Shown here: positions 1,803-32,400 of the stretch, piece by piece
Layout: the number at the start of each line of letters is the position of its first letter
Numbering within the stretch: the stretch's first letter is position 1
NCBI GenBank assembly: GCA_963787835.1
Contig: CAWBEI010000002.1
Span: 672,001 to 736,000, forward strand
DNA: 64,000 bases
Source of the DNA: Ignavibacteriota bacterium
GTDB lineage: Bacteria > Bacteroidota > Ignavibacteria > Palsa-1295
Direction: 5' to 3'
Position numbers and translations under genes: made by a program
Notes under the pieces: model-generated
The model's input: the letters and a program-made list of their open reading frames with translations, nothing else
Databases searched by the model: none
Told to the model about the DNA's origin: nothing

Positions 1803-1867
1803 TTTGACTATAACATTCTTCATGGGGCTTTTCTTCCCCACCCGAAAACTGCGTCAGGATGGGCGTG

Positions 1868-3907
1868 TCAGCGGAGCACCACGATCGTTCGGGTTTCGGA
1901 GCGACCGGTTGCGGATGAGATCCTTACAATTTTCAGGCCTGAGGTGAGCGCGGTGAGATCGAGCGGGAATGGGTCGGTACTGAGATCGGCGGTCGTTTGC
2001 AATTCCATCCTTCCGAGGGTGTTCAGAAGTTCAATCCGCGCAGAGGCTATTGGGCTGGAAGACGTAATTTCAGCGACAGTGCTCACAGGGTTTGGCGTGA
2101 TACTAAAAACCGGCACACTACCGTTTCGTAAAAGATCGCTAAGAATAGTTTGCGCACAATTACCCGACCCGCAGATCTGCGTAGTGACGCCAACGATCGA
2201 ACCGCAGAATGTCCCGCCGGGAAGCTTGCTTGCACCGATCGTGATCTGAGCGCAATTTTGCTGAGTTGGGAAAAAACCAAAATGCAAAAGCGCGATCACG
2301 CTATCGAGCGCAAGCCCCGTTTGTGCATGAATATGAAGTATCTTCACGTTGCTCTCCGATGTGACAGAATCGATCCGCGTGCCATCGAGATCGTATCCGC
2401 CTTGAAAGACGAGCACCGTGGAATCGTAAATAATTTCCAGATTGATCGGCGATGGAACGTTTATATTAGATTTCAGCGGCAGCACGAGATCGCCGATCGT
2501 ATCTGTGATGATCCGATTAGCCGAGAGCACGATCGTTCCGCTGGAACCGTGCCCGCCAAGCTGGAGTAGCAGCACCTGACCATCGCTAAGCGTGATCCGA
2601 AGGCTTGCGGAATACGCGCGCGCGCTATCCGGAGCAAACAGGATAATATCGGAATCAAGGCTCGCTACGCTCGAATCCGAAAGGCGCGTAAACTGGTAGT
2701 ACATCGAATCCGGCCCGACGATCTGCTGCGAAACAATGGTTGGCGGAACGCAAATATATCCGGAATACGGTAAAATATTAACGCTCTTCGCGAGAGTTCC
2801 GCAAGCCGGAAGTGTGTCGCCGTTGAACAGCGATGCAGCCGAAAGCTGCGGCGCAACATATTCCTCGTTAATAGGAACTCCGGCAGAATTCGTGGTTCGC
2901 CAAATGCTTCCTCCGCTATCGAGCGCGATGATAAGGCTATCGTTAATGGCGCAGATCGAACGTGTATCGATCCCGGAGTTCGGCCCGCCGATCGACTCCC
3001 AATTCCCGCCTATCGCGCGATAAACACCGCCGGCATTACTCGCTGTAAAGATACAATTCGTGCCCGCCTCGACCGATCCTGTGAAATATTTCGGCACATT
3101 AGTAACGCTTGTCTGCCAGCTTGCGCCGCCATCCGTGGAGGATAACACCTGCGAGATCGTATCGAATGGGAAATAATTCTCATTCGTAAGATACCCAACT
3201 CCCTGACAGGAATCGAAGGTGAGGCTGTAGCAATCTGCAATGAATTGACCGGCAAGCGATTGCCAGCTCGCACCATCATCGGTGGATTCATACATCAACC
3301 CCACATAATCATACGAGGGAACGAATAATTTCGAGGCAAGCAGATACAGCGAGCCTTTTCGGTACAGGATCTGTGTAGCATTAGTATCTACACGCTGAAC
3401 GTTCCAGGTGGTGCCTGCGTCATTGGAGATCCACACTTCACCGCCGAAATCCGAGAGCGCAATGCGTCCGGGCGACTCCATAAACGTTCCGTTCGCCATG
3501 CCATCGACCTGATTTGCAAGCTTGTTCTGCCAGGTATTGCCGCCATCGGTCGTGAGATAAGCGCCGAAGAACGTTGTAACAATGCCGTTATTCTTATCGA
3601 TAAAATTAATATCCTCGATACGGTCCAGCGTGGGGTCGAAGAACTGCGGGATCTGCCGCCAGGTTGCGCCGCTGTCATTCGAGCGGCAGAGGGTCAGGCA
3701 GCCAGCCCAGACGATGCCATCCTTATACGTGATCGCTGCGCTCTCGACGGGAAGGCTGCCGATAGCCTGATTCGCTACAATGCTCCATTGTGCGCTAGCC
3801 TTCCGAGACATAAATAGTTGAAAGGACAACAGCATCACCACGGTCAGGGCCGCCGACCGAAAACTCCAAAAGGACGCCCGCTGGAACAGATGCCGCATAA
3901 AACCCAA
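1868..3907 (-). CDS. Secreted BNR/Asp-box beta-propeller protein with Ig/cohesin-like region and T9SS C-terminal sorting domain
   Basis: Signal peptide (ASA-Q); repeated S/T-x-D-x-G-x-T/S-W Asp-boxes; C-terminal ITPNPV...LNTLGR...SGLKIVRI. True start may be ATG 3898. Confidence 0.8.
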   Translation of the reverse strand: MGFMRHLFQRASFWSFRSAALTVVMLLSFQLFMSRKASAQWSIVANQAIGSLPVESAAITYKDGIVWAGCLTLCRSNDSGATWRQIPQFFDPTLDRIEDINFIDKNNGIVTTFFGAYLTTDGGNTWQNKLANQVDGMANGTFMESPGRIALSDFGGEVWISNDAGTTWNVQRVDTNATQILYRKGSLYLLASKLFVPSYDYVGLMYESTDDGASWQSLAGQFIADCYSLTFDSCQGVGYLTNENYFPFDTISQVLSSTDGGASWQTSVTNVPKYFTGSVEAGTNCIFTASNAGGVYRAIGGNWESIGGPNSGIDTRSICAINDSLIIALDSGGSIWRTTNSAGVPINEEYVAPQLSAASLFNGDTLPACGTLAKSVNILPYSGYICVPPTIVSQQIVGPDSMYYQFTRLSDSSVASLDSDIILFAPDSARAYSASLRITLSDGQVLLLQLGGHGSSGTIVLSANRIITDTIGDLVLPLKSNINVPSPINLEIIYDSTVLVFQGGYDLDGTRIDSVTSESNVKILHIHAQTGLALDSVIALLHFGFFPTQQNCAQITIGASKLPGGTFCGSIVGVTTQICGSGNCAQTILSDLLRNGSVPVFSITPNPVSTVAEITSSSPIASARIELLNTLGRMELQTTADLSTDPFPLDLTALTSGLKIVRISSATGRSETRTIVVLR

Positions 3908-4000
3908 CTGAAAAAGAAGCGATCACATATAGCTCGTATATACAAGACACTTTAATTCGAATAAGGTAACAGAAAATCCTGAAAATAATGTCCGAAAGAA

Positions 4001-4161
4001 TCAGAACCAGGATGACGCGGATTTGGGCGGATGACGCGGATAGATTGGTGTTCATCCGCGACTTTCTTCTCTAAAACCACATCGCGCTATTTCAATCCAG
4101 AAGAACCACTCCTAAACATCCGCGTAATCCCCTTTCCTAATCCGCGTAATCCAGGTTCAGA
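4001..4161. repeat. Inverted-repeat element of the GGATTACGCGGAT family, copy 1
   Basis: Left arm TCAGAACCAGGATGACGCGGAT..GGATGACGCGGAT; right arm ATCCGCGTAATCC..ATCCGCGTAATCCAGGTTCAGA. Homologous to 6845-6941. Confidence 0.8.
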
Positions 4162-4169
4162 TAATCCCT

Positions 4170-6383
4170 TCACGGCAAAACCACCATCCCCCGCGTTTGG
4201 GACGAACCGCCGCTCTCCAGACGGTAGAAATACACGCCGCTTGGGGTGTTCCCGCGCTGGAACGGCACCTCATGCTCGCCGGCATCCATAAAGCCATTCG
4301 CAAGCGCAGCCACTTCGCGGCCCGTGGCGTCGTAGATAGTGAGGGTAATGTAGGATGGTTCCGGAAGTGTGAACGAGATTGTGGTGCTTTGGGTGACGGG
4401 GTTGGGGGAGTTCTGAGTTAGGAGAATGGATGACGGTTGCACGGGAGCTGATTGGACGGCATCAAGAGTGGGGTTGACACTTCGATAAAGACCGGATTCT
4501 GTTTCAACGAATACGTATCCATTAGGGGACAATGCTAGTGACCTTACCGATTTGTCACTCAAGCCACTATTTAGGGAATCCCAAGACATTCCTTCGTCGG
4601 TAGAGCGATACACACCCTCGAAGGGACTACTATTATAATTTACGTAGCCGAGATATAGATAGTTTTGTGCATCTGTGAGCATAGACATTTCTGCGATTTC
4701 ACCTTCAGTTGTGTCCAATCGCGAAACATTTTGCCAAGTATCTCCATCATCTTTCGAACAAAAAATTCGAGTGCTACCAGAGGCTGCAAAAATATTTCCA
4801 TTTTTGTCAATAGCAAGTGCATAAATATCGCTGTCAGTTAAACCGGCATTGGTCTGTTTCCAATTCTTACAGCCGTCTGTTGAGCGAAAAATGCCACTAC
4901 TAGAGCCGACAAAAATATTGCAGGAACGATCAGAAATAAGGCATTCTGGTGCGCCTGGAATACCGGGTGCAGATTCATGCCAACTACTTCCAGAGTCGGA
5001 AGAAAAGAACATTCGATTAGGTATTGCTTCGTTCGAATAGAGGTAAAGATTTCCACAGCCATCTGTAACAGGTCCCCATACATTACCCGAATCAATTGAA
5101 GCGGGCAAACCCGAATCGCATAAATCCCAATGCGAACCGAAATCACTGGTACGCAAGCAATCAACGTAGTCCCATAAATACAGCGAATTCCCCATAATAG
5201 GTTGCCAATCGGTTGAATAATTTGTGTTGATTGGGACTTCGATTGGGAACCATGTGCTCCCCAAATCCGTGGAATAGGAAGAGCCTGTTGTTAAAGTCCC
5301 ATTCTGGGATATATTAAGATTGTATAGTGTTCCTAAACCATGTCCTATCACTGTCCATGTGTTCCCATTATCGGTTGATTCTTCCAATCCGTAATAATCG
5401 GTTCCCGCATAGATGCTATTACCAGTCGAATTAATTGCAATACACTTAATAAACTGACTTTTGAGTTCCGAATCCAATGACTCCCAAGTATTTCCGTTAT
5501 CTGTAGAGCGGAAAAGTCCCACATCACTGGGCCACAATATGGAGTAGGTAGTGATAAATAGCGTTCCGTTGGGTGAAACCGTGAGAGAACTTACTTCAGC
5601 AGAGTCCGTAGGGGCATTTTGAAGCTGAGTCCAATTACTATCGTCCAAGCGAAACAAACCATTGTTACAACTTGCGAAAGGAGTTCCGTTCAAACTAACT
5701 CCGAGCAAATTACCGTATTCAGAAAGAGTATCGGCTGACACACGATTCCAATTTGTTTTATCGCTCGATTTAAAAATTATTCCATTGCTTATACCAGCAA
5801 AAATATTATTGTTTTTATCGACAGCGAAGGCAATTGACTGATTAAAAGTGTTATTGGGCCCCTCATACGGAGCAATCCATTCGTATAACGCGGTGTATTG
5901 CCAGCTAAGCCCTTCATCAGTTGAAATCATGACACCGAGCGTATCAAAATCATAGCTTGATTGATGAGGAAAGCCTTGCATGTATACCTGGGCAGCCCAT
6001 CCAGCAATTAAGTCACCGAGACTATCAACAGTAAAAGGTGCGCCCACATTGGGAATCAATTGCCAAGAAAAACCAACGTCAGTTGAACGATATATATTGC
6101 GGTTGTAATCTTCACCAAAAAGGTGGCTGTTTGGACTTTTCCACATTGCTGCAAAGTCCCAGGGGGAATCCGGTTGAGGTTCTTGCCATGTTAAACCTTC
6201 ATCATTCGATATGAAAATATTACCATCGCTGGCGATGATTGTTCCATCATCTTCAATTGTGATTGCACTCGCGGTAGAAGGGGTTGTGTTTCCCACCGGT
6301 TCCCAAAAATTCTGCGCTACGCTTGGGCTGTCGGCGAATAGCACCAGCGCGGCGAGGAGGAGGAATGTGAGTTTGGGGAACAT
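4170..6383 (-). CDS. Secreted Asp-box beta-propeller protein with T9SS C-terminal sorting domain
   Basis: Signal peptide; many RSTDxGxxW boxes; C-terminal QNSPNP...IYDATGREVA...SGVYFYRL. Confidence 0.85.
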   Translation of the reverse strand: MFPKLTFLLLAALVLFADSPSVAQNFWEPVGNTTPSTASAITIEDDGTIIASDGNIFISNDEGLTWQEPQPDSPWDFAAMWKSPNSHLFGEDYNRNIYRSTDVGFSWQLIPNVGAPFTVDSLGDLIAGWAAQVYMQGFPHQSSYDFDTLGVMISTDEGLSWQYTALYEWIAPYEGPNNTFNQSIAFAVDKNNNIFAGISNGIIFKSSDKTNWNRVSADTLSEYGNLLGVSLNGTPFASCNNGLFRLDDSNWTQLQNAPTDSAEVSSLTVSPNGTLFITTYSILWPSDVGLFRSTDNGNTWESLDSELKSQFIKCIAINSTGNSIYAGTDYYGLEESTDNGNTWTVIGHGLGTLYNLNISQNGTLTTGSSYSTDLGSTWFPIEVPINTNYSTDWQPIMGNSLYLWDYVDCLRTSDFGSHWDLCDSGLPASIDSGNVWGPVTDGCGNLYLYSNEAIPNRMFFSSDSGSSWHESAPGIPGAPECLISDRSCNIFVGSSSGIFRSTDGCKNWKQTNAGLTDSDIYALAIDKNGNIFAASGSTRIFCSKDDGDTWQNVSRLDTTEGEIAEMSMLTDAQNYLYLGYVNYNSSPFEGVYRSTDEGMSWDSLNSGLSDKSVRSLALSPNGYVFVETESGLYRSVNPTLDAVQSAPVQPSSILLTQNSPNPVTQSTTISFTLPEPSYITLTIYDATGREVAALANGFMDAGEHEVPFQRGNTPSGVYFYRLESGGSSQTRGMVVLP

Positions 6384-6473
6384 GGTATTTGTTGCAATGA
6401 AAAGCCGCCACGGAAGCCAAAAGTGCCCATGAGGGAGGGTAATTAGGAGTGCATAGGTCTGAACCCTTATACC

Positions 6474-6545
6474 TGTAGCACCGGCGTCCTCGCCGGTCCC
6501 CCTTCCGACACGCGACCGGGGAACAGGCGAGGACGCCTGCGCTAC
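6474..6545. repeat. GTAG-type REP doublet
   Basis: TGTAGCACCGGCGTCCTCGCCGG ... CAGGCGAGGACGCCTGCGCTAC inverted pair with internal hairpins. Confidence 0.75.
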
Positions 6546-6561
6546 GGGGGTGATGATCTAT

Positions 6562-6829
6562 TTTCGATTATTTTCGTGAAATGCTTGCATTCGGGTTTTT
6601 GTCGCCATATATTAGGGATTGCTTTGATGAGCACCCTTTTTCAATTACGAATTAAGAGTTGGGGAAGGCTCGTATGTTCACTGAAAATTGAGATGGAATA
6701 GATTTCTTGGAGAAATTAATGAACAATTACTTTAAAGTAAAATATAGTTCATTAAATGACAATTCAGTTGCGTTTAATGGGCACCAATGTCTTGAAGAAA
6801 CAAATGTTGAAATTGGCTCAATTTCGAGG
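6562..6829 (+). other. Conserved non-coding element A (candidate ncRNA or non-autonomous mobile element)
   Basis: 54/76 ungapped identity with 26794-26719 (-), plus three further shared blocks. Confidence 0.6.
6585..6613 (+). promoter_or_regulatory. Sigma70-type promoter at the head of non-coding element A
   Basis: TTGCAT-17 nt-TATATT; positionally conserved in the homologous element at 26743-26771. Confidence 0.65.
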
Positions 6830-6844
6830 ACAGATCATGAAGGC

Positions 6845-6941
6845 GAACCTGGATTACGCGGATTGGATGGATTACACGGATAGTTCGCTGCCAATGCACC
6901 ATCCGCGTAATCTCCCCAAATTATCCTCGTAATCCAGGTTC
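6845..6941. repeat. Inverted-repeat element of the GGATTACGCGGAT family, copy 2
   Basis: Perfect 14-bp terminal IR GAACCTGGATTACG / CGTAATCCAGGTTC with internal GGATTAC(G/A)CGGAT units. Confidence 0.8.
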
Positions 6942-6997
6942 TGATTCATGGGGGACGAAATTCCCACACCTATCGTTGAAGACGGTTGAGGGAAAAT

Positions 6998-8779
6998 ATG
7001 TCAAATACCAACGGAAAAGCAACAATGAATGGGCAGGCGCCGAGGTCGGCGCCCACCTCGCAGTCTTTTGAGCAAAGCAAGGAATACCAGGAAGCGTATC
7101 TGCTCTGGAAAGCCAAAGCGGAGGCGAGTCCCGAGACCGGGATGAAGTTCACCACGCTTTCGGGGAAGGCGCTGGAGACGGTGTATGCTCCGACCGGCAA
7201 TGGGGCGGACCCTTCGACAAGCTCAGGGCAGGCTCCGCGCAGCACGTCGCTACAAGATCCGAGCGCGTTCATTGAAAATATTGGTTTTCCGGGGCAGTTC
7301 CCATACACAAGGGGAATCCATCCGAATGGTTACCGTGGAAAGATCTGGACGATGCGGCAGTTCGCGGGATTCGGCACGCCGGAAGATACGAACGAGCGGT
7401 TCAAATATCTGCTTGCGCATGGGCAGACGGGGCTTTCCACCGCATTCGATCTGCCGACGCTCATGGGCCGCGATGCCGATGACCCGTGGAGCGAAGGCGA
7501 AGTAGGCATTTGTGGCGTAGCGATCAGTTCGCTCAAAGATATGGAGACGCTTTTTTCCGGCATCCCGCTGGATAAAGTTTCCACTTCGATGACGATCAAT
7601 TCGCCCGCGGCGATGATCTTTGCATACTACTTATGCGTGGCGGAACAGCAGGGCGTCCCCTTCAACAAACTGCGCGGAACGTTGCAGAACGATATTCTGA
7701 AAGAGTATATCGCACAAAAGGAGTTTATTTATCCGCCGGAACCATCGATGCGTATCATCACGGATATGATCGAGTTCTGCACGGCGGAAGTTCCGCAGTG
7801 GAATCCTGTTTCGGTGTCGGGCTATCATATTCGCGAGGCCGGCTCGACGGCTGCGCAGGAACTGGCTTTCACGCTCGCCGATGGCTTTTGCTATGTCGAG
7901 CATTGTATCGCGCGCGGGATGGATGTGGATGAATTTGCGCCTAGGCTATCGTTCTTTTTCAATTCGCATATCGACTTTTTCGAGGAGATCGCGAAGCTGC
8001 GGGCTGCGCGTAGAATTTGGGCCAGACGTTTGAAGGAGAAGTATGGAGCGAAGAGCGCGAAATCGCTTTCGCTACGGTTCCATACGCAGACAGCGGGATG
8101 TTCACTGACTGCTCAGCAGCCGGAGAACAATATCGTCCGCACGGCTTATGAAGCATTGGCCGGAGTGCTGGGCGGTACGCAATCGCTGCATACCAATTCG
8201 ATGGATGAAACGCTGGCGCTGCCAAGCGAGAAAGCAGTCAAGATCGCGCTGAGGACGCAGCAGATCCTGGCATACGAAACAGGCGTTATCAATACGGTCG
8301 ATCCGCTCGGAGGCTCATATTTTATCGAGTCAGAAACAGATCGTCTTGAACGCGAAGCCAATGCCTACTTCGATCAGATCGATGCACTAGGCGGCGTGAT
8401 ACCAGCGATCGAAGCGGGATTTTTCCAGCGAGAAATTGCGGACGCGGCGTACCGCTACCAGATCGAGCTCGATAAGAAAGAGAAGTTCATCGTTGGCGTG
8501 AACGAGTTCATTGAAAAAGATGAGAAGATCGATATTCCGATCCTGCAAATTTCGTCGGAAGTAGAACGATCTCAGAAACAGAAACTTGCAGAAGTGAAAG
8601 CGAACCGTTCCCAAACAGCGGTGGATGAATCCATCGAGGATATTCGCGCTGCCGGGTTCGGGCATACGAATCTGATGCCGCTCTTCATCAAGGCGGCACG
8701 GAACTATGTGACGCTCGGCGAAATGGTGAATACGCTGAAAGTTCCGTTTGGGGAGTATCAGGAATCGGTGGTATTTTAG
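6998..8779 (+). CDS. B12-dependent acyl-CoA mutase large subunit (methylmalonyl-CoA mutase family; isobutyryl-CoA mutase-like residues)
   Basis: [48 protein letters not shown]; no C-terminal DxHxxG B12 domain. ATG 6998 follows GAGGG. Confidence 0.92.
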
Positions 8780-8782
8780 AAG

Positions 8783-10429
8783 GTGGAAACTGAAAAGCCG
8801 CCTTTTCGCCTTCCACGATCGCTCGAAATTCTGCTGGGAGTAGTCGTCATTCTTGAACTGATCGCTCCGTTCGTCACCACGACGTACGGAGTGGATGGCG
8901 GACTTCACCTTAATTGGATCCATCAGTTTACGGACCTGATTTCGGAGGGAGTCTTGCTTCCGCGATGGGCCCCGACCGGTTTTTATGGCTTCGGCGCCGC
9001 AACGTTTTACTTTTACCCGCCGGTAACCTTTTATATTGCCTCCCTTTTTCGGATGGCAACAGGGATAACGGATCCTGCTGTTCTTTATCAATTGACCGGC
9101 CTCGCTGCTACGATAGGGAGTTTTGTAACTGCCCGAGTATTGCTTCGCTCGATCGGAACGGCAAACTATCAAAGGAATCTTGGGGCATTGCTCTATGCAT
9201 TCGCTCCATTCCGGATGGCAGAACTTTATTCCCGCTCTTCGCTTTCGACCTGCGTGGCCTATGCCATACTCCCACTTGTTTGGCTCGGAGTGATCGAAGT
9301 GATACGAACCGATCAGCAAGGAGGCATTCGCCCGATTGTTTTATTAGCATTTTGTAGCGCCCTGCTGGTTCTTACCAATATCCCACTGACCTCTGTTACG
9401 CTCATCTGCATGGCGATCGCTGCATTCCGGTATTGGAAACTATTATCATTTCGAAGCATCCGCGATCTGATCGTTGCTGCGATGATCACGATCGGATTAG
9501 TGGCATTTCATCTCACTTCCGTGATTGCCGCTCGCCCGTTCACGCGATTGGAAGACCTGAAGCCGATCAAATTGGAATTTCTTCTTACCGACCTGTTACA
9601 CGGAGTTTCTATCCCCGCTGGTTATCATGTGCTTCTTTTATATATTGCTGTTGCAATTGTTGGATTTGGGTATTGGAGATCGCAGCGCTCGGGAACATCA
9701 CTGACCGGAACGGAGAATAAGATACTCAAGATCGGACTGCCGATCGTGATAGTAACAATGTTTGTGGAAATACCACGGATCAGTCTTTTCGTTTGGGAAT
9801 TAATTCCACCATTTCCTCTGATTCAATTTGGTTGGCGCTTTTACGCGTATTTTATTTTCCTTGGAGCGCTCCTCATAGGAGCAGCAAATTCCCCGAAGAT
9901 GAAAACAGCGGCAAGGTATATCTCGATGCTTTGGATCGTTGGAGCAATAGGGCCTGCCTTGCTTCTCGTCTTAAATCTTCACGCATTTCAGCATTATGTA
10001 AGGCCGACAGAAGATGCAACGGAATATCGCCCCAAAGTAACCGTCGCCCGGACCATGCTCGCAAGTACTTTGGAACCCCATGCTCAAGATCCGCCGATAA
10101 TCGGAAATCTCGACGCGCGCGATAAAATCGAACTGATCAATACCAGCCCGATCAATCAGAAATTCAATGTGGATATTATGATGCCGCAATCCGTAACATT
10201 CCATCGGTTCGATTGGCCCTATTGGCATTTGTACTGCGATGGGAAAAAGATAAGTACTCTTCCCGACAGCATCGGCCGCGCAACCGTCGAACTGCCGCCC
10301 GGTCACTACATCGCTGAATGGAAATTAGAACGCGCTCCGATAGAGACGGCGGGTCTTTGGATATCCAGCCTTACATTTGTAGGGATTTTGTGCGGAATCG
10401 TCGGCAACCTTCTTTTACATCGAAAATGA
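8783..10429 (+). CDS. Polytopic GT-C-like membrane protein (PTPS-related/YfhO-like), paralogue 1
   Basis: DGGLHLNW...PRW...GFGAATFYFYPP motif, about 12 TM segments, C-terminal F-x-W-P-Y-W periplasmic domain. Confidence 0.75.
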   Translation: METEKPPFRLPRSLEILLGVVVILELIAPFVTTTYGVDGGLHLNWIHQFTDLISEGVLLPRWAPTGFYGFGAATFYFYPPVTFYIASLFRMATGITDPAVLYQLTGLAATIGSFVTARVLLRSIGTANYQRNLGALLYAFAPFRMAELYSRSSLSTCVAYAILPLVWLGVIEVIRTDQQGGIRPIVLLAFCSALLVLTNIPLTSVTLICMAIAAFRYWKLLSFRSIRDLIVAAMITIGLVAFHLTSVIAARPFTRLEDLKPIKLEFLLTDLLHGVSIPAGYHVLLLYIAVAIVGFGYWRSQRSGTSLTGTENKILKIGLPIVIVTMFVEIPRISLFVWELIPPFPLIQFGWRFYAYFIFLGALLIGAANSPKMKTAARYISMLWIVGAIGPALLLVLNLHAFQHYVRPTEDATEYRPKVTVARTMLASTLEPHAQDPPIIGNLDARDKIELINTSPINQKFNVDIMMPQSVTFHRFDWPYWHLYCDGKKISTLPDSIGRATVELPPGHYIAEWKLERAPIETAGLWISSLTFVGILCGIVGNLLLHRK

Positions 10430-12156
10430 AGATCGATGAACCCGTGAATTCTACAATGCTAACACAGACATCTGTGCAGGACGAATTATTTCGGCTGCCT
10501 CGCTGGCTTGAAGTGTTGATCGGGATCGTAGTTGTATTGCAACTGATCGCGCCATTTATTACATCACCCTCTGGACCGGATGGACCGATCCATGTGTATT
10601 GGATAGAAAAATACGATCAATTGCTTCGGGCTGGCGTATTCCCACCTCACTGGCTTCCACTTGCATTTCGGGGATTTGGTTCACCCACCTTTTATTACTA
10701 TCCACCATTTTCGTTCCTTTTAGCGGGAGCAATAAGCTTTGCTACTGGCACCCAAAATCCGATCATATTATTTCAGAGCGTGGTGGGAATCTCAACAGCG
10801 CTCAGCCTATTCGGGATGTGGAAACTTCTGGAGCGACTCGGAGCATCTCGATATTGGATGTGGATAGGTGCATTGCTCTACACGTTCGCACCTTACCGGG
10901 TCGCCGAGATCTACAGCCGATCCTCACTCTCCTCGATAGTTGGATATGGATGGCTGCCCTTTGTTTGTCTTGGTCTTCTTTGGATTGGCAGCCAGCGGAA
11001 AGATGAGCAACTCCGGGGCGTTGCCCTCTCTTCACTCTCGATGGCCCTTGTAGTTCTAAGCAGCCTTCCGCTTGCAATGGTCATTGCCATCGCAGGGCTT
11101 CTCGTAAGCATTCTTGCACGCAAATATATCTCTGCACGCATGATCCTTCTTTCGTTCACTGCGGCACTATTAGCTTTTGCTGCAGATGCATTCTTCTTAT
11201 TTCCGATGGCGGAATTTAATAAGGCCATTCATCTCTCGAATGCCACCGGCGACCCTGAATTTGCCTTGCTGGATCTATTTCGTGGAATCGCAATGCCAGG
11301 AGTGTATCATACTGCTATTATTTATACAGGTATTTTATTGATCGGAATCGCTCATTGGACCGTCGGACGGAAATTAACCGAAAGAAATTTGACGAAAAGT
11401 TTGACGTTGCGGCTTGCCTGGGGAGTTTCGATCCTCATTTTATTGATAGACCTTCCGATCAGTCTCCCGATATGGCGTCACGTTCCTATTTTTACACTTA
11501 TACAAGGTCCATGGCGATTCTATATTTTCGTGGTACTTTTTTTTGCAGTTATTGTCGGACTTTTTCCGAACACTAAACTGCAGCGACCAATCATTGCTAC
11601 AATCTCGATCTGGATGATAGGGGCTCTGATTCCAATGTTGCTCGTGACCACGAATTCCCGTCTATATTTTCATCAAAATACCATAGCTGTCGATCCTGCG
11701 GGATTTCTTCCATCCGGAGCCACGGATTCCGTATTTGCGTCCAATACGCCAGAGCGATTTCTTCCGGTTTTGGAACACTTATCTGCTCAGCCTTGCTTCA
11801 TCGACTCGCCAGAGTTGACGGCGCAAGAATATTGTACCAGAACTTCATTCGGGCCAACGACGGAAACATATAACATGTTATTACTCACGGCACACATCGC
11901 TACATTTCATCGATTTCAATGGCCAGCCTGGCATCTTTTTGTCAATAACAATGAGATCCTTTCAAGACCAGATAGCTTTGGACGTGCCCAGGCGACACTA
12001 CCGGAAGGACATTATACGCTCAAGTGGCAATTGGAGAAGACGCCGCTCGAAATCTCAGGACTTTGGATTTCGGGCATAGCTTGGATTGGACTTATCCTAA
12101 TGTGGGGAATAGGTCTCGGCTTCAGAAGGTTTAAGAAGGAACCACCAGTATCATAG
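10426..12156 (+). CDS. Polytopic GT-C-like membrane protein (PTPS-related/YfhO-like), paralogue 2
   Basis: DGPIHVYW...PHW...GFGSPTFYYYPP; colinear with the previous gene; ATGA overlap at 10426-10429 defines the start. Confidence 0.75.
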   Translation: MKIDEPVNSTMLTQTSVQDELFRLPRWLEVLIGIVVVLQLIAPFITSPSGPDGPIHVYWIEKYDQLLRAGVFPPHWLPLAFRGFGSPTFYYYPPFSFLLAGAISFATGTQNPIILFQSVVGISTALSLFGMWKLLERLGASRYWMWIGALLYTFAPYRVAEIYSRSSLSSIVGYGWLPFVCLGLLWIGSQRKDEQLRGVALSSLSMALVVLSSLPLAMVIAIAGLLVSILARKYISARMILLSFTAALLAFAADAFFLFPMAEFNKAIHLSNATGDPEFALLDLFRGIAMPGVYHTAIIYTGILLIGIAHWTVGRKLTERNLTKSLTLRLAWGVSILILLIDLPISLPIWRHVPIFTLIQGPWRFYIFVVLFFAVIVGLFPNTKLQRPIIATISIWMIGALIPMLLVTTNSRLYFHQNTIAVDPAGFLPSGATDSVFASNTPERFLPVLEHLSAQPCFIDSPELTAQEYCTRTSFGPTTETYNMLLLTAHIATFHRFQWPAWHLFVNNNEILSRPDSFGRAQATLPEGHYTLKWQLEKTPLEISGLWISGIAWIGLILMWGIGLGFRRFKKEPPVS

Positions 12157-12157
12157 C

Positions 12158-13054
12158 GTGATATCTTTTAAAGCCATTCTTCGCCTTCTTCGGATCAAGC
12201 AATGGACGAAAAATATTTTCGTCTTTGCTGCACTTGTGTTTTCGAAACAGCTTTTAAATCCAGCATCCGTTCTTCTTTCGTTGCGTGCATTTTTTACATT
12301 CAGTTTTGCTGCAAGCTTTATTTATGTGTTGAACGATGTTGCGGACCGTGAGCGCGATCGCCTCCATCCCAAGAAACGCTTTCGGCCTATTGCGTCTGGC
12401 GAGATCTCGCTTCGTTCCGCCTTCGTTATTGCCACAATATTGCTCGCGCTGATCGCTCTGTTCATCTATGGTCTCGATTGGCGTTTTGTGATGTGTATCG
12501 TCGCATATCTTGTGATGAATCTCGCCTATAGCTTTTATTTGAAAGATGTCGTTCTCATCGATGTTTTTGTTATTGCGATCGGATTCATGCTTCGCGTTAT
12601 TGGCGGAGCATTAGTTTTGAATGTTGCACGTAGTTCGTGGCTCATTCTCACCACGATGTTCCTCTCGTTGTTCTTAGGAATAGCTAAACGTCGTGGCGAG
12701 CTGATCGCTCTTGGCACTTCCTCCGCTGCTGGAGCGACAGGCTATCATACGCGTAAAGTTCTTGCAGAATATTCGGTCGAGTTTACCGAACAAATGACGA
12801 CCATCTGTGCAGCAGGATTTGTTTTTAGTTACGCTCTTTACACCGTGTCGGATAGAACGGTTAACATGTTCGGAACGGAGAACCTTATTTTCACCACGCC
12901 TTTCGTTCTTTATGGGGTATTCCGCTATCTGTATTTGCTCCACAAAAAATTGCTTGGCGAAAGTCCGACAGATGTGGTGCTCTCCGACATACCGATGCTT
13001 CTCAATTTCGTGGCCTACGCCATCGCCATGATTACCATCATTTATTTTCGATGA
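12158..13054 (+). CDS. UbiA-family polyprenyl-phosphate phosphoribosyltransferase (DPPR synthase-like)
   Basis: RIKQWTKN, YVLNDVADRERDRLHPKKRFRPIASG, KRRGEL, GESPT motifs. Confidence 0.88.
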   Translation: MISFKAILRLLRIKQWTKNIFVFAALVFSKQLLNPASVLLSLRAFFTFSFAASFIYVLNDVADRERDRLHPKKRFRPIASGEISLRSAFVIATILLALIALFIYGLDWRFVMCIVAYLVMNLAYSFYLKDVVLIDVFVIAIGFMLRVIGGALVLNVARSSWLILTTMFLSLFLGIAKRRGELIALGTSSAAGATGYHTRKVLAEYSVEFTEQMTTICAAGFVFSYALYTVSDRTVNMFGTENLIFTTPFVLYGVFRYLYLLHKKLLGESPTDVVLSDIPMLLNFVAYAIAMITIIYFR

Positions 13055-25761: not shown

Positions 25762-26451
25762 GTGATCGCTCGCCAAAATACATTCCTCACTCCCGAACTG
25801 GTGCTCGATGCGTACCGCCAAGGACTGTTCCCAATGGCCGATGCGCGTGGCGCAATCAGTTTCTATGCCTACGACCCACGAGGCATTATTCCACTCGATG
25901 ATCGATTCACCGTTCGTCGTTCCCTGCGTCATGTTTTAGAAAAAAAGAATTTTCGCGTTACATTCGATACCGCTCCGCTCGAAATCCTGCGTGGCTGTGC
26001 CCGCTTCGAAGAGAACATTCCCCCTGAGGAACGATGGCTCACCGAAGAACTCATCGAGCTGTATCTAAAGCTCTTTGAACTAGGTTACATGCACACCGTC
26101 GAAGTTTGGGGCATAATGGATAGTGGAAAGTGGATAGAGGATAACAAAGAGTTACCATCCGAACACCAGCCACCCACCGTCAACTATCCACTATCAACTA
26201 CCCTGATCGGTGGACTCTATGGCCTCACCTTCGGCGCGGCATTTTGTGGCGAGTCGATGTTCTCCCGCGCCCCTTACGCCTCACAGATAGCTCTGGTGTA
26301 CCTCGTCGAGCGGCTGCGCAGAAAAGGCTTCCAACTGCTCGACGCCCAAATGCCAAGCGAGCATCTCCAGCAATTCGGACTCTACGAATGCTCGCAGGAG
26401 CAGTATCTTCCGTTATTCCAAACCGCCGCAAAAATGGATGTAAAGTGGTGA
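25762..26451 (+). CDS. aat: Leucyl/phenylalanyl-tRNA--protein transferase
   Basis: AYRQGLFPM, HTVEVW, GGLYG, FCGESMFS, LLDAQ; about 29-aa repeat-derived insertion. Confidence 0.92.
   Translation: MIARQNTFLTPELVLDAYRQGLFPMADARGAISFYAYDPRGIIPLDDRFTVRRSLRHVLEKKNFRVTFDTAPLEILRGCARFEENIPPEERWLTEELIELYLKLFELGYMHTVEVWGIMDSGKWIEDNKELPSEHQPPTVNYPLSTTLIGGLYGLTFGAAFCGESMFSRAPYASQIALVYLVERLRRKGFQLLDAQMPSEHLQQFGLYECSQEQYLPLFQTAAKMDVKW
26116..26202. repeat. Inverted heptamer arrays inside aat
   Basis: ATGGATA GTGGAAA GTGGATA GAGGATA ... AACTATC CACTATC AACTACC. Confidence 0.72.
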
Positions 26452-26474: not shown

Positions 26475-26794
26475 AATTTATTGTCTACAAGAAATAGGTG
26501 CCATTTCTTTTTCTTGCTGAGTTCCCGACTACCCTCGAATTTAGGCCAAATTCGCCATTTGAGGCAAAAGTTATTCACAATTCACTTTCGCGAAGAACTC
26601 GTTCATAACGAAAGCTGCCTTCCCCTCTATTTTCAATGAACTCCCCATTCTTCCCTGATCCCGAAAATCTGTAAATCGAGGTCCATCTTTCATACTTCAT
26701 CTTTCATCTTTTCCCCCGAGGGTGCCCATCACAGTAGATACTAATATACGCACATTATATCCAGAAGTCAAGTGTTTTCCGAAAATAATCGAAA
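26475..26794 (-). other. Conserved non-coding element B (homologue of element A)
   Basis: Begins immediately after the vapC stop; shares the 76-nt head and three blocks with 6562-6829; contains a TTCAT(C/A)(T/C) heptamer run near 26683-26709. Confidence 0.6.
26743..26771 (-). promoter_or_regulatory. Sigma70-type promoter at the head of element B
   Basis: TTGACT-17 nt-TATATT on the minus strand. Confidence 0.65.
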
Positions 26795-26795
26795 T

Positions 26796-27206
26796 TTATC
26801 GATTTGGAGGAAGCCATTCAACCTTGACGCCACGATGTTCCACATTCTCGAACTCTCGATCTCCGGTGAGGATTGGAGTGTCGCGTTCCAGTGCGAGCGC
26901 GGCAGCAAAACAATCGGCATACGACAGGCCGCCATCTGCTTTTAATCGAGCAGCAGAGATCATAACATCGAAACCCGGCATGATAACTTCTATAGGAAGG
27001 GAGCGGATGGTCGCCCGTATTTCCTCGGCTGCACGCTCACCTTTCCTCCGTAGAACAGTGTAATACACTTCGCCAAAATTAATCCCTGAAAGTAAGTGGA
27101 AGTAACCGCCATTGGCGGCGTTATCGAGATGGTTGAGGACGATCCCCGAACCCGTTTGATTCAGGAAAAGAGTGAGGAGAGAAAAACTATCGAGGATGAA
27201 GATCAT
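26796..27206 (-). CDS. vapC: VapC PIN-domain toxin
   Basis: MIFILDS, INFGEVYY, LSYADCFAAALA, ILTGDREF; start reassigned to ATG 27206. Confidence 0.9.
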   Translation of the reverse strand: MIFILDSFSLLTLFLNQTGSGIVLNHLDNAANGGYFHLLSGINFGEVYYTVLRRKGERAAEEIRATIRSLPIEVIMPGFDVMISAARLKADGGLSYADCFAAALALERDTPILTGDREFENVEHRGVKVEWLPPNR

Positions 27207-27474
27207 GGTCCTCCCGGTTTCGTTCGACCTTTTTTTCTTCGAGATAGGAGTCGAACATGGACTTGTCAGTGCCAAGGAGTCCAACGGACTTCTGTATGGC
27301 TTCTTTCATCCGGTCGAGTTCTGGTGATAGTGCTGGCATTTTTATGATAATTTCAGATTCCCGATCCTCGATCATTACCTTAGAACCAGTGTGAAGCCCA
27401 TGCCGCGATCTCACGGGGTCCGGAAGATCGAGATGACCTTGGGAATCGATGATTGATTCATAAGCTCTGTCCAT
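27187..27474 (-). CDS. vapB: AbrB/MazE-fold antitoxin
   Basis: SIIDSQGHLDLPDPVRSRHGLHTGSKV; upstream of and overlapping vapC. Confidence 0.75.
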   Translation of the reverse strand: MDRAYESIIDSQGHLDLPDPVRSRHGLHTGSKVMIEDRESEIIIKMPALSPELDRMKEAIQKSVGLLGTDKSMFDSYLEEKKVERNREDHDLHPR

Positions 27475-27519
27475 AGTTAAGTCCAACCACCGCTGTGGGG
27501 CAGTAGTTCATTCATATTT

Positions 27520-27574: not shown

Positions 27575-27612
27575 AACCACCTCCGATACCGTAATAAGCT
27601 TCATGACTTCTT
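27575..27612. repeat. Direct repeat copy 1 (duplicate of the GT9 gene 3' end)
   Basis: AACCACCTCCGATACCGTAATAAGCTTCATG identical to 28310-28340, then ACTTCTT after a 1-nt indel. Confidence 0.95.
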
Positions 27613-27628
27613 GGAGCGATTCCTTTCA

Positions 27629-27654
27629 ATTTGTTGTAATATGTTACAACAAAT
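27629..27654. promoter_or_regulatory. Palindromic operator at the higB start
   Basis: ATTTGTTGTAA-TATG-TTACAACAAAT, perfect 11-bp arms overlapping the ATG. Confidence 0.7.
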
Positions 27655-27940
27655 GCATATCATCACTCGGAAGCGCCTTAACGAGTTTGTCGAGAGACAT
27701 CCGGATGCCTTCACGGGTTTCGATGAATGGTACCGCAAGGCCAAGCGAGCAAAATGGCAAAATTTTGCCGAGCTTAAGGCGACGTTCGGCTCCGCAGATC
27801 TGGTCGGAAGATATATTGTCTTTAATATCGGCGGCAATAAATTTCGACTCATTGCAAGCCTCCGATACCAACGGCAGAAAGTATATATCAGAGCATGCTT
27901 AACGCATAAGGAATACGATGAAAACAAATGGAAAGACTAA
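27653..27940 (+). CDS. higB: HigB-family toxin (RelE fold)
   Basis: MHIITRKRL...W...FGSADLVG..VFNIGGNKFRLI...LTHKEYD. Confidence 0.92.
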   Translation: MHIITRKRLNEFVERHPDAFTGFDEWYRKAKRAKWQNFAELKATFGSADLVGRYIVFNIGGNKFRLIASLRYQRQKVYIRACLTHKEYDENKWKD

Positions 27941-28223
27941 ATTAAAATCCGAGAGTAGTGCCGTCATGGCATGGACTCCGTCCTCGCACATCATCAATGT
28001 TCCCGCAAACGAAGCAGAGTACAATGAATTAGTTGCCGTGCTCGATTATTTGCTCGACACCAGCGATCCCGATGAACAAAGCCCGGCCGCTGCGTTAGTG
28101 GATATGATCGGCTCACTCATCGAAAGCTACGAGAACGCAAACGTGCCCGAACTTTCAGCTCCCCGCCGCAAAAGCCGCGCACATCGCCCCATCATTACTC
28201 CTCGCCAATTTAAAGCAGCTTAA
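27918..28223 (+). CDS. higA: HigA-like antitoxin lacking the C-terminal HTH
   Basis: NEAEYNELVAVLDYLLD...LVDMIGSLIESYE N-terminal motif; no Cro-HTH follows. Confidence 0.7.
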   Translation: MKTNGKTKLKSESSAVMAWTPSSHIINVPANEAEYNELVAVLDYLLDTSDPDEQSPAAALVDMIGSLIESYENANVPELSAPRRKSRAHRPIITPRQFKAA

Positions 28224-28246
28224 GGTGCGTCCTCCCCAATTTATAA

Positions 28247-28302
28247 TTCATACTTCATAATTCATACTTCATAATTCATACTTCATAATTCATACTTCAT
28301 AA
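28247..28302. repeat. Tandem array (TTCATAC TTCATAA) x4
   Basis: Perfect 14-mer x4; supplies the last codons and the stop of the GT9 gene. Confidence 0.95.
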
Positions 28303-29476
28303 TTGCCCCAACCACCTCCGATACCGTAATAAGCTTCATGCACTTCTTATGCCCGCAATTATGCACGTTGTAAGGCTTTAAATACCCAAGTTGGAGGCAG
28401 GGAGAACACTCAACTCCTTTGAATACATCAATATGCTTCTCTGACAGACTACGATAGCCCCAATAATCGGACATTCCAAAAACACGGACTGTCGGAGTTC
28501 CGACCGCCATTGCGATATGACCGATACCACTATCATTCCCAATCATTGCATCACATCGCGAAAGCAACGAAGCAACTTCGAAAATAGAATAACTACCAGA
28601 TAAATTGATTGACGATGATTTGACAAATTTTGATGCCTCCTCTATTTGTTCTTTCTCGCTCGCAACCCCGAAATGCAAAAAAACAGGATCATATTCTACT
28701 GAAAGATCACGCAAAACTTCAGCAAACCGATCATCGTCCCATTTTTTCCAATGTTGTGCCTTACTTGCACCAAAGTGAGTTCCTATCACAACTCGACCAT
28801 CAAGCTGATTCTTTAACCAAAAAGATTCAGCAAATTTCTTTTCTGAATCATTCAAAGAAATATTCGGAGTAATGTAGGTAACCTCTTCTCCAATTAATTT
28901 GCTAATTAGCCTTGAATGTCGACTCGTTTCGTGTTCATGATCTTGCTTAAGCCTTACTGAAATATTGAACATTTGGTTGGGACGCGGCTTGTACCATTTA
29001 TCCCAGGAAAAAACGTGACCCACGCGAATCGGCGCGCTAAGTATCGCACTTGTGAAGTAAGGGGTCGGCGACATGTAGGTGCAGATAATTATATCATACT
29101 TTTCTTTCTTAATTTTATGGTTCAAACCTCGTAATTCGGACAATGATAATGATTTGAAATCCGCTTCCAAAACCATGCGGAATTCTCTTCCTTCCATTTG
29201 CATTAGTCTCTGCAGCATTGGTCGGCTTTGGGATTCTGTTCCAACAATAACGTCAATTTGAGCCATCGGAAAAGCGTTGAGAATGGCTCGGAGCGATTGC
29301 TGAAACATGAGAGCATCACCAAGGCCCATATATCCGAAAATGAGGATTTTGATCTGCTCCTCTTGAAATTTCGTGACTTTAGGGTGTTTTGAAGGTTTTA
29401 GGTATGACAGAATGATAGCCAAAACCGTTTTGGTTAGCAGATAAGCAACCTTTAGTCCTCGTGAAAAAATAGCCAA
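28283..29476 (-). CDS. Glycosyltransferase family 9 (heptosyltransferase-like)
   Basis: GLGDALM, HFGAS..WKKW, IGNDSGIGHIAMAVGTPTVRVFG, CSPC...C...CM. Confidence 0.9.
   Translation of the reverse strand: MAIFSRGLKVAYLLTKTVLAIILSYLKPSKHPKVTKFQEEQIKILIFGYMGLGDALMFQQSLRAILNAFPMAQIDVIVGTESQSRPMLQRLMQMEGREFRMVLEADFKSLSLSELRGLNHKIKKEKYDIIICTYMSPTPYFTSAILSAPIRVGHVFSWDKWYKPRPNQMFNISVRLKQDHEHETSRHSRLISKLIGEEVTYITPNISLNDSEKKFAESFWLKNQLDGRVVIGTHFGASKAQHWKKWDDDRFAEVLRDLSVEYDPVFLHFGVASEKEQIEEASKFVKSSSINLSGSYSIFEVASLLSRCDAMIGNDSGIGHIAMAVGTPTVRVFGMSDYWGYRSLSEKHIDVFKGVECSPCLQLGYLKPYNVHNCGHKKCMKLITVSEVVGAIMKYEL
28310..28348. repeat. Direct repeat copy 2 (within the GT9 3' end)
   Basis: Matches 27575-27612. 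Confidence 0.95.
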
Positions 29477-29484
29477 AATGTGCT

Positions 29485-32400
29485 ATGAAAAAAATACTTA
29501 GAAATTACCGTTCTTTTGGTAAGGCGTATTTGATTGGTTCAGTTCTAATTACGCTTCTTTTTTCGAGTTTACTTCGCGCCCAAACGTGGCATTACATCGC
29601 CTCAATGAATTACGCAAGGACTGAGCATCGTGGTGTCGCGTTCCCAGACGGCCGAGTTCTTATTGCTGGCGGTAATAATGGCAGTTCGGTGCTTTCGAGT
29701 TGCGAAATTTATGATCCCCAAACAAATACCTGGACTAAGACCGGTTCAATGAACGAACCAAGATACCGCTTTGCAATGATGACGTTAGCGGACGGTCGAA
29801 TATTGGTTGCGGGTGGTCTAACGGATATGGGAACGTCCACAACTGCCGGCTGCGAAATATATGATATTAGTACAGGCGTATGGACCCAGATGAATCCAAT
29901 GCTCACTCCGAGAGAAAATTTTCCGCTTTTGCTATTGCCAGATGGTAAAGTCTTCATCAATGGAGGTGCTAACGCAAATAACGGTACTTACTTAACCGCA
30001 ACCGAGCTATTCGATCCTGTTGCGAATACTCACCAGTCGTTAGCATCCATGGACACTGGTGTTTTCGGTCAGATAGCGTTTTATGATTCTTTAAACAAGC
30101 ATGTCTTAATTCAAGGAGGAAGCTATGGGGGACTTTTGGGACATTACATTTCCGCAACACAAATCTATGACATCGCTACAAATAATTGGTCGCTAGGTCC
30201 AAATTCCTATGACAAGCACGATGCGGGAACTTACTGTGAAACCCCAGATCAAGGATTGCTCGGAATCGGAGGTCGATCTAGTTCATACGTAGCAAATGAC
30301 GTAATCGAGGTTCTCCGCTCGCCATATAATGCCTGGGATACTCTCGGTCATCTCACATCGGCCCGTTGGTCTGGGTCTGTGTTACTAGTATCCGGCGACT
30401 CGATTTTTGACATTGGTGGAAATAATGATCCTGGTGTCAATACTAATGTTTATGACTCTACAAACTGGTTCAATTATAAAACTGGAAAAGTAACGCAGGG
30501 GCCAAGATTGATAGTACCAAGAAGTGCATTTGTGGCTGTTGTCTCAAGAGTCCCCCTCCACCCCTGTACAGACAGTGTGGAAGTCTTGGTTTTCGGCGGA
30601 ACTTCAACAGGTCAAGTAATAAATTCTTGTGAGGCGTTGTCTCTTGGCGCAATAGCCGATTCTGTCCATTCCCCCTCCCTCCTTTCCCTTTCCCAAACCA
30701 CGCAATCGGTGCTCGATACGGCGTGCGGGAAAGCAAAGGATACCGCATTTCATCTTGGCGGCACCGGGTGTCCGGGGGTAACGCTGGATAGCGCATATTT
30801 CATGGGTTCCTCGGCGTTCAGGATTGGGGATACACGTAGTACGCCGCGCACGCTCGATTCGCTCGATAGCGTTCGCATCGTCTTTAACCCGACCTCGACC
30901 GGAGGCGATACGTCGTATCTTCACATCAAATACGATCTCGGTTCGGGTTCCCACGATACCGTCATAACGATCGTAGGCACATCCACACACGCTCCGGGGA
31001 CGCTCACACTTTCGCAAACCGTGCAATCGGTTTTTGATTTGAACTGTGCTCCGAAAGATACGTCCTTCCATCTTGGCGGAACCGGCTGCAATGGCGTAAC
31101 GCTCGAAGGTGCTTCGATCACCGGCTCCTCCGCATTCCGTATTATTGATTCGCGTGGAGCACCGCGCGCGCTCGATTCGCTCGATAGCGTCCGCATCGTC
31201 TTTACACCCACCCCGCCCGGCACCGATACGTCCTATCTCCATCTGCAGTATGATCCTGGTACCGGTTCGCGCGATACCATTGTTACGCTGGTGGGCTCTT
31301 CCAGAAACGCTCCCACTACCTTTTCCCTTTCGCCAACAACGGAATCCTTATTCGATACGATCTGCAATGCGCGGGATACGTCTTACAAATTTGGCGGCAC
31401 GGGGTGTCCGGGCGTCCTGCTCGATAAAATGTTCCTGACGGGTTCCTCGGCATTTCAGATCGAAGATGCACGATCCATGCCGCGTACCCTCGACTCGCTC
31501 GACAGCGTACGCATTGTTTACACCCCCGCTCCTCCGGGAGTCGATACCACGTATCTCCATCTTGTCTATAACACGGGTTCCGGCGATCGCGATACGATCA
31601 TTACCCTCATCGGTGCGATCGATCCCTCGCTTCGCAAAGTGTTCCTGGAAACCTTATCCTCGCCGCAAGTCGTAGAAGCAACCTGCGTTCCACTTTCGAT
31701 TCCGATCCCACTTTGGATCAACGGCTGTATTGCCAACGGCGGGAGATTAGATTCGGCGTACCTTACCGGTTCCTCTGCGATTCATATCAGCGACAAACGC
31801 AGCGCGCCGCGTTCGCTTAACTCGTTCGACAGTGTGCAGTTGCAATATCTGCCAGGCGCCACCGCTCCGGATACGGCAGTGTTGCATCTTACCTACGATC
31901 TGGGTTCCGGCACGGTCGATACCACGATCACCGTGATCGGCAACATTGTCAACCCGCTTCCGCCCCCAGCCATTTTAATTCCCCCAACGATACAAAGCAT
32001 TTTGTCCACATCGTGCGGCGGATCGGACACCGGTCTTCGCATCGGCGTTACCGGCTGCCCGCTGCAGAATGGCACGTTAGATTCGGTGTGGCTTACCGGA
32101 TCGCCAGCGCTCCAGATCAGCGATACCCGCTCCGTTCCACGATCGCTGCTGATAAATGACAGCATCGGTGTATTGTATTTACCCAATGGTGGTGGTTCGG
32201 ATACTGCAGAACTTCATATTCGGTACGATGTCGGCTCCGGCCCGCAGGATACGGTGCTTACGGTCATCGGCTCGGTGGCATCGCCATTGCTTGCGCAGCC
32301 GGCACACATGCGCCGGGAATCCTCATCCGCCTATTATGACGGACTCGATTCGCTTCCCCTTCAACTCGATATTAGTACCTCGGTCAATTTCGATTCTCTT

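Follow-up and report, generated by a model that had tools for sequence, protein, structure and literature searches.

What purpose is served by a non-coding element that sits between a toxin gene and the end of a core gene, and whose promoter points at that core gene from the wrong side? The element, here called copy B, lies in a window of 64,000 nucleotides, which is the whole stretch of DNA analysed, from an Ignavibacteriota genome of 3.57 Mb in 7 contigs (G000; its relatives are labelled G002, G005, G006, G009, G010 and G014). Copy B is read on the minus strand, from just past the vapC stop codon to about position 26482, 30 bp short of the stop codon of aat (Table 1). An earlier note on the window had described an element that starts directly after the vapC stop and carries a minus-strand TTGACT-17-TATATT promoter, facing the 3' end of the convergent aat gene with no ORF to serve. 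Each part of that description is borne out. The stop codon is at 26796-26798 and the two genes match PF01850 and PF03588; the promoter (26771-26743) agrees with the consensus at 10 of 12 positions and is the top of 10 promoter matches in the region, where 3.0 matches are expected in shuffles; and no ORF of at least 50 aa starts on that strand inside the element. The predicted LexA box of copy B begins 5 bp past the -10 hexamer, and tandem boxes like its pair of boxes are found at the equivalent position in the lexA promoters of some relatives.

Table 1. Coordinates of copy B, its neighbours, copy A and the phage-like genes (window positions unless a locus is named)
Feature	Position	Strand	Basis and remarks
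A/T-rich tract, UP-element-like, upstream of -35; module start	26772..26794	-	sequence; common to many copies
-35 hexamer TTGACT	26766..26771	-	
-10 hexamer TATATT	26743..26748	-	17 bp from -35
Second, weaker predicted LexA box	26738..26753	-	8.9 bits; overlaps -10
Predicted LexA (SOS) box, GTGC-N8-GCAC type	26722..26737	-	10.3 bits; motif derived from DNA preceding recA and lexA in other genomes
Heptamer run, 4 copies	26684..26711	-	variable slot after box; slot differs among copies
Conserved block a (GTTCATTGAAAAT)	26629..26641	-	
Conserved block b, roughly inverse of a	26594..26613	-	terminates in ATGAACGAGTTCT
DnaA-box-type nonamer (TTATTCACA)	26571..26579	+	sequence; within optional 10-bp insert
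Conserved block Y	26545..26560	-	also in lexA leader
Block Z, core-gene side	26482..26526	-	ends with second operator half-site GGCACC (26502-26497) and TATTTCT tail
aat, leucyl/phenylalanyl-tRNA-protein transferase	25762..26451	+	core gene on Z side; PF03588; in 14/15 genus genomes
vapC (PIN domain) and upstream partner gene	26796..27486	-	PF01850; first cargo, promoter side; absent here in relatives
More low-GC cargo: higBA, GT9 glycosyltransferase, start of large secreted-protein gene	27575..30500		GC 0.39-0.49 over 26.5-30.5 kb
Copy A, W-subtype of the same family, before mcmA	6562..6831	+	-35 6585, -10 6608, box 6619-6634 (14.4 bits), a, W, half-site, Y
Head-tail cluster: terminase, portal, protease, capsid, adaptor, SLT/transglycosylase	L241:10550-19529 and L242:120-9202		G000:C2 about 822.5-841 kb
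Tape measure gene, apart from cluster	L249:868-4146		

Copy B is one member of a genome-wide family. Both copy A and copy B have dozens of matches in G000, and six blocks were used to define the family, namely P (the -10 plus GGCACC), a, b, Y, Z and W. Block searches of G000 give 70 multi-block clusters and a profile search gives 78 loci, 71 of them at least 120 bp long, such that the two copies treated by the earlier note are in fact two of about 70. The predicted LexA box and the link to accessory islands, both described below, were overlooked there as well. The resemblance between blocks is well above chance, with Z, W and b found 54, 18 and 55 times genome-wide, versus 0, 0 and 1 times in a shuffled genome. 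The commonest order is P-a-b-Y-Z (28 of the 70 copies, copy B included), and copy A belongs to the W-subtype. The full module body is common to G002, G006, G009 and G014, and the other matches among 61 genomes cover mostly the promoter and heptamer part only; relatives of the LexA protein carry the labels Candidatus Kapaibacterium, Ignavibacteriota or Bacteroidetes. A small ORF in the body was considered and rejected, as indels of 10-11 bp and stop codons break the frames.

Comparison of the genomic copies changes how the block order should be read. The last two blocks of copy B had been taken as permuted relative to copy A, but GGCAC is a recurring half-site, which follows W in copy A and Z in copy B and occurs four times over in the leader of lexA, and its recurrence creates the appearance of permutation. 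The recurring half-site and the two subtypes explain the order, and a true permutation of blocks was rejected. The heptamer run that had been described as inserted in copy B does follow the GCACC site there, but it is not specific to that copy, given that the equivalent slot of copy A is occupied by a short run of a different heptamer. Promoters of recA and uvrB in another genus have heptamer runs that start immediately behind the operator (L049, L050, L055 and L009), which ties heptamer arrays to GCACC sites beyond the module family.

The half-site GGCACC is the right half of a palindrome, GTGC-N8-GCAC, that is intact before recA and lexA and partial before dinB. A de novo motif search in 51 recA and lexA upstream regions, a set that excludes the body-carrying genomes G000, G002, G006, G009 and G014, recovered the same palindrome; 49 of the 51 sites end in GCAC, and TGC-N8-GCA is present in 29 of 30 lexA regions. 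Because it is recovered before recA and lexA across the family, GTGC-N8-GCAC most likely represents the LexA (SOS) box. Its binding protein would be LexA, by the usual argument from recA and lexA operators; canonical lexA is represented in G000 by one TIGR00498 match above the cut-off. Derivation of SOS boxes from a motif shared before lexA and recA has precedent in the available text of PMC8565304 and PMC7739468. The box of copy B scores between those of dinB (6.7 bits) and recA (15.8 bits), and 4.6e-5 of genome positions reach 10 bits. The left box, scored in 66 copies, has a median of 9.8 bits, and only half-sites are present at the Z end (0 of 54 reach 8 bits) and at the W end (0 of 16). 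Intergenic GTATATT hexamers are accompanied by a box of at least 6 bits in 55 of 55 cases within modules versus 1 of 101 elsewhere, a conservation that is not independent evidence for the 55 copies because they share ancestry.

The module is also akin to the lexA promoter as a whole. Its promoter geometry is identical to that of lexA promoters, and a profile of the W-subtype from which the lexA copy had been left out matches, along their length, the lexA leaders of G000, G014, G005 and G009, with E from 1e-17 to 6e-22, indicating that the module family is homologous to the lexA promoter-leader. Some W-subtype copies precede real SOS-type genes (lexA and a radical-SAM gene). As in LexA/SOS promoters, a palindromic operator lies beside the -10, the same motif stands before lexA, recA and, more weakly, dinB, and the lexA leader has several operators; unlike the known ones, the module exists as about 70 gene-less copies. 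The motif presumably resembles the box of Fibrobacter. The available text of PMC3091678 mentions Fibrobacter and gives no motif, and GTGC-N8-GCAC is unlike GGA-N5-TCC, CTAA-N5-TTAG, the Balneolaeota direct repeat, CGAAC-N4-GTTCG and GTTC-N7-GTTC, as these appear in the available text of PMC8565304, PMC7739468 and PMC9578287. Literature searches, which covered articles outside subscription journals and without supplements, found no published SOS box for Kapabacteria; GTGC-N8-GCAC is offered as a candidate for this family. In several genera of the family, lone half-sites lie about 60 bp before the box in the recA and lexA upstream regions (L037-L096).

Behind the operator, the module body is spaced in helical turns. 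The length from block b to Z falls into three classes about 11 bp apart in 48 copies (105-107, 116-118 and 128-129), and the period from site to site is about 11.2 bp, with an R of 0.62, computed on distinct values, that none of 2000 random sets matched. The gaps from a to b and from P to a are without phasing; module indels come in helical turns and on one side only. The same length steps recur in 39 of the 40 copies scored in G002 and 18 of the 20 scored in G006. The optional 10-bp insert often makes a DnaA-type box, as it does in copy B, which has the TTATTCACA form; we take nonamers of this type to be DnaA boxes by their consensus. DnaA-type boxes are found in 17 of 40 G002 copies, and 8 of the 38 perfect boxes of the genome fall in modules, which make up 0.5% of it. 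A-tract periodicity in the body is weak and not convincing. For homology of the module with oriC, no clear oriC was found near dnaA. An intergenic stretch of G000 (C4:367673-368373) has three DnaA-type boxes beside a W-type module and is a possible oriC, and the GC-skew minimum of C2 (955 kb) falls at the far end of a module island.

The two sides of the module adjoin different kinds of DNA. The Z side adjoins housekeeping genes, which are co-oriented at 44 of 70 copies and convergent at 25, and the promoter side adjoins secreted-protein, toxin-antitoxin, restriction and Cas9 genes, with identities read from their sequences. Convergent downstream genes, at 25 of 70 copies, support the argument of the earlier note against a simple gene leader. 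Cargo genes point either way (35 and 35 of 70 copies). A GC trough is present on the promoter side only, reaching 0.46 at 1-2 kb and returning to baseline by 4.5-5 kb. The lengths of 39 islands in G002 and G006, with ends placed by eye from BLAST, have a median of 4.4 kb; 22 measure 4 to 5 kb and 34 do not exceed 5 kb, and an exponential distribution is rejected (p 0.002). The G002 loci in this set are 20 taken from 40, chosen for an upstream flank that does not match the orthologous site, and those of G006 are the first 20 listed copies without L254, the ortholog of copy A before mcmA, whose module is interrupted by roughly 6 kb of inserted DNA. A pac-type start would give unidirectional fragments limited by the headful; the islands are one-sided and most numerous at 4-5 kb, and 5 of the 39 depart from this, exceeding 5 kb and extending up to 13.5 kb (Cas9). 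Among gaps of at least 1 kb without a module, 4 of 35 reach 4 kb.

The islands differ between relatives at the same core junctions. DNA behind the promoter is non-syntenic at the G002 and G006 copies that were followed, and at copy B about 9.6 kb has no counterpart in G009, low-GC DNA making up about 4 kb of it. The island of copy B may thus be 9.6 kb long, which, like the five long islands above, counts against a ceiling of 5 kb. At the aat site, the module of G006 occupies the identical position next to different cargo, G002 retains a remnant, and G009 and G014 have none. Six sites with a module in relatives are empty in G000 (L225, L233, L260, L263, L269 and L270), by gain or loss in either polarity. 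No target-site duplication was seen at any of the six, most clearly at L263, where 5,076 bp stands in place of 3 bp of G000. Related cargo accompanies the module at different loci in three genomes. When DNA upstream of the copies is compared within G000, 50 of its 85 paralogous hits are located upstream of a further copy, versus 12% expected, and 1 is downstream, in a count that takes pairs from both sides and includes some hits to other repeats. In each of three genomes a Cas9 locus stands right behind a module, each time at a different core gene (L216, L262 and G000:C2:1211711, with Cas9 identified from its sequence start).

A candidate vehicle for such DNA is encoded in the same genomes. 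One phage portal gene is present in G000 and likewise in 4 of 4 relatives tested, as part of a head-tail cluster that occupies a shared core location, with unrelated variable genes scattered through it. A single capsid gene is present in 29 of 34 family genomes versus 0 of 26 others searched, and dN/dS of about 0.08-0.14 for capsid and portal indicates purifying selection. Structural genes that are single-copy, kept vertically and under purifying selection are the mark of a gene transfer agent (GTA). Given that the head-tail cluster is single-copy, family-wide and under purifying selection, it is a candidate domesticated GTA of Kapabacteria, a group with no GTA paper among those that a literature search listed. 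The operator is conserved at the left edge of the cluster in G000, G002 and G006; G010 has the cluster without a module match and without a box at the cluster start. Pfam Terminase_6N finds nothing in 5 genomes, yet PHROGs names a large terminase. No small terminase was identified; the gene before terL, a candidate, encodes an acidic protein of two helices, with a predicted fold at pLDDT 61 and no match at E 0.001. The idea that the module is a copy of the terminase leader was rejected, as only the operator and tail are shared (E 0.06 at best; genome hits have E above 2). The module therefore lacks the position at, or homology to, a small-terminase leader that marks a pac site, and, with resemblance at operator and tail alone, no direct link between module and particle is seen. 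In G014 the large terminase is split in two ORFs (L248:15188-16653), by a frameshift or a sequencing error. G000 has the tape measure gene at the start of two contigs, before the dinB promoter and before a W-type module (C5:867-4149 and C7:360-3642), either through strain heterogeneity with a crossover at an SOS promoter or through real duplication.

An operator module at one end of small foreign-gene islands is likely a damage-controlled DNA handle for moving them. In its fullest form, to which we give a probability of about 0.4, this reading makes copy B a DNA site, gated by LexA and DNA damage, at which packaging starts and recombination occurs, and which is used with a GTA-like particle. 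LexA would bind the module and repress it until DNA is damaged, and the phased sites would wrap or dock a protein complex. A cut near the Z end might then open packaging, which would proceed into the DNA on the promoter side and stop with a full head, such that one end of a fragment of about 5 kb is fixed for transfer, probably by the domesticated phage-like particle of the family. The fragments could enter new junctions without target duplication, or could recombine with a resident copy by way of RecA and take the place of its cargo. A Ku gene, which might account for insertion without homology, was found in none of 5 genomes, a point against this reading. Crossing over from one copy to another would shuffle the chromosome, with the module as recombination anchor.

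Packaging from a fixed start has a parallel in phages. The pac sites of SPP1 and SF6 are, in the available text of PMC4737164, promoter-containing stretches of bendable DNA with repeated boxes that fix one end of the headful. The module is like them in its promoter and repeated sites, and one-sided, size-capped fragments would follow from such a site. Unlike them, it is chromosomal and multi-copy, lies apart from a small terminase gene, has no cognate small terminase that could be found and carries a LexA operator instead of phage control. Known GTAs carry about 5-15 kb according to the part of PMC9632790 available, and capsids set the maximum cargo (PMC12946183, in its available part). The candidate Kapabacteria cluster resembles those of RcGTA and the Caulobacter GTA: the head-tail genes are single-copy and vertically kept, the cluster has no integrase, the tape measure gene is elsewhere, the presumed cargo is of a few kb and ComEC is present. 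In the available text of PMC6854486, the DNA packaged by known GTAs is random, a binding site has not been described for any GTA, and the small terminase of RcGTA binds DNA without sequence specificity. Unlike the known GTAs, the putative Kapabacteria particle may have its cargo biased by a dispersed module.

A broader and more doubtful proposal is that the Kapabacteria family keeps a domesticated GTA, and that one lineage seeded its genome with about 70 LexA-gated packaging-start sites derived from the lexA promoter, such that DNA damage leads to directed export of 5-kb islands of defence and surface genes, without transposase or integrase. If true, this would be a sequence-addressed cassette shuttle run by the host instead of an export of random DNA, and directed packaging would overturn the rule of random cargo in GTAs. 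The observations bear in any case on how small defence islands reach gene junctions without an integrase or transposase, given that a regulatory promoter has been amplified into a repeat and is tied both to entry points of accessory genes (toxin-antitoxin, restriction, Cas9 and secreted proteins) and to chromosome breaks. A fixed end, a size ceiling and a candidate vehicle make the arrival of islands testable. Literature searches, again outside subscription journals and supplements, found no prior description of a dispersed repeat with a LexA box at islands.

The rival that survives best, though we consider it rather unlikely, dispenses with a packaging signal. The module would be a LexA-regulated repeat that acts as a mere homology anchor: incoming DNA, from transformation or as random GTA fragments, would recombine at a resident copy and join illegitimately at its far end, and crossovers between copies would rearrange the genome. 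The one-sided layout fits, as do the far ends of the islands, which are abrupt and without a common repeat. Crossovers fall at differing places within the module body, as an anchor would predict; site-specific crossover at the box was rejected, since among the alignments listed for nine G002/G000 pairs there is no single crossover point, and a proposed swap at L198 was rejected because that locus is orthologous. Breakpoints are enriched at modules, with synteny breaks at 8 of 20 joints with a module versus 11 of 154 without, several of the 11 being far ends of the same islands. The presence of ComEC and the missing homology to the terminase leader agree with an anchor as well. It leaves unexplained the module-plus-cargo at sites that are empty in G000, the 11-bp phasing and the retention of the operator in every copy.

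The suggestion that the transcript itself is the functional unit, as an SOS-induced non-coding or antisense RNA from the module promoter, is improbable. It would account for a canonical promoter, identical in geometry to lexA promoters, with no ORF behind it; blocks a and b, and GAGTTC and GAACTC, could pair, and 7 of 30 copies fold on the sense strand with a z-score below -2. The folding z-scores are weak on both strands, however, with medians of -0.67 (sense) and -1.09 (antisense) in the first 30 Z-type copies. RNAalifold on 30 aligned copies gives a consensus fold of -0.01 kcal/mol in which 0 of 6 pairs are compensatory, and changes in block a are unmatched in block b. Searches of the element region found no Rfam match at the gathering score, and no terminator-like site was found at the module end in the region of copy B, so neither a conserved fold with compensatory changes nor a match to a described family is seen. 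The helical-turn indels on one side are also hard to reconcile with an RNA. Because the spacers step by 10-11 bp and RNA covariation is absent, the unit looks like DNA rather than RNA. Of the two possibilities raised by the earlier note, the modular DNA site array is the one favoured, by phased spacers and an SOS-type operator of the family in the promoter, and the transcript is not.

Just as improbable is a module that forms the end of a non-autonomous transposon, of the rolling-circle, IS110 or RAYT/IS200 type, and drags adjacent DNA along. Such an element would suit the missing target duplication at L263, the 10 Y1-transposase matches in G000 and the REP-like hairpins near some islands (within 250 bp upstream of 6 of 71 copies, and downstream of none). 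The module has neither terminal inverted repeats nor hairpin ends, its ends carrying the half-site in direct orientation, and none of 70 clusters encloses a transposase of the families searched (Y1, Y2, IS110 and RT). IS110 is present in 2 of 5 genomes only, reverse transcriptase is absent from G000, and the three tyrosine recombinases (XerC-like, XerD-like and a phage-type integrase) all lie away from the copies. A search for IS91 was blank, with its control also silent. The module is not palindromic, and the GTAG-type hairpins lie outside it, which separates it from REP and REPIN sequences.

Nor does the module belong with other described repeats and platforms: it lacks defining marks of a MITE, a REPIN, an integron and a structured RNA. 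Correia, BOX, REPIN and MITE sequences are lineage-restricted, intergenic, modular dispersed repeats that bear promoters and reach dozens of copies. Putative mobile promoters, as described in the available text of PMC3575422, are promoter-bearing dispersed repeats, and the module is like them in being lineage-restricted, intergenic and modular, with dozens of copies and a promoter. Unlike all of these, it is without terminal inverted repeats or target duplication, is derived from an SOS promoter, is helically phased and is strictly polar to its cargo. Integrons are under SOS control (PMC9578287, in its available part), and the module is like them, with their LexA-controlled Pint and their attI and attC sites, in having an SOS box at a platform that adjoins genes for toxin-antitoxin systems and defence, and in pointing its promoter away from the cargo. 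Integron platforms have an adjacent IntI and co-oriented attC cassettes; here no IntI-like gene was found beside any of 70 copies, no attC-like repeats separate the cargo genes, and the cargo takes both orientations.

Very improbable, finally, is a portable promoter kept because it gives back or adds transcription to core genes that an island has cut off, which would fit the co-oriented downstream gene of 44 of 67 scored copies and the W-subtype copies that head SOS-type genes, but fails to explain why 23 of 67 copies, copy B included, face a convergent gene, why box strength is the same in both orientations (p 0.33 over 68 boxes, 3 of them, copy B included, mis-picked by the pattern, with the weaker boxes sought before co-oriented genes not seen), why ribosomal and metabolic genes, which LexA repression suits poorly, should be so controlled, or why a phased body of 200 bp is kept.

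Several smaller features of the window and the contig were recorded. An exact 31-bp direct repeat of the 3' part of the GT9 gene (27575-27605 and 28310-28340) flanks higBA, and heptamer runs provide a stop codon on both sides of the higBA cassette; the bracketing repeat and these stop codons suggest that the cassette was inserted with a long duplication. Contig C2 of G000 starts with an inverted duplication of several genes (1-12745), perhaps an assembly feature. Within the window, three 318-bp repeats are found inside the 1170-aa secreted-protein gene (30738-31607).
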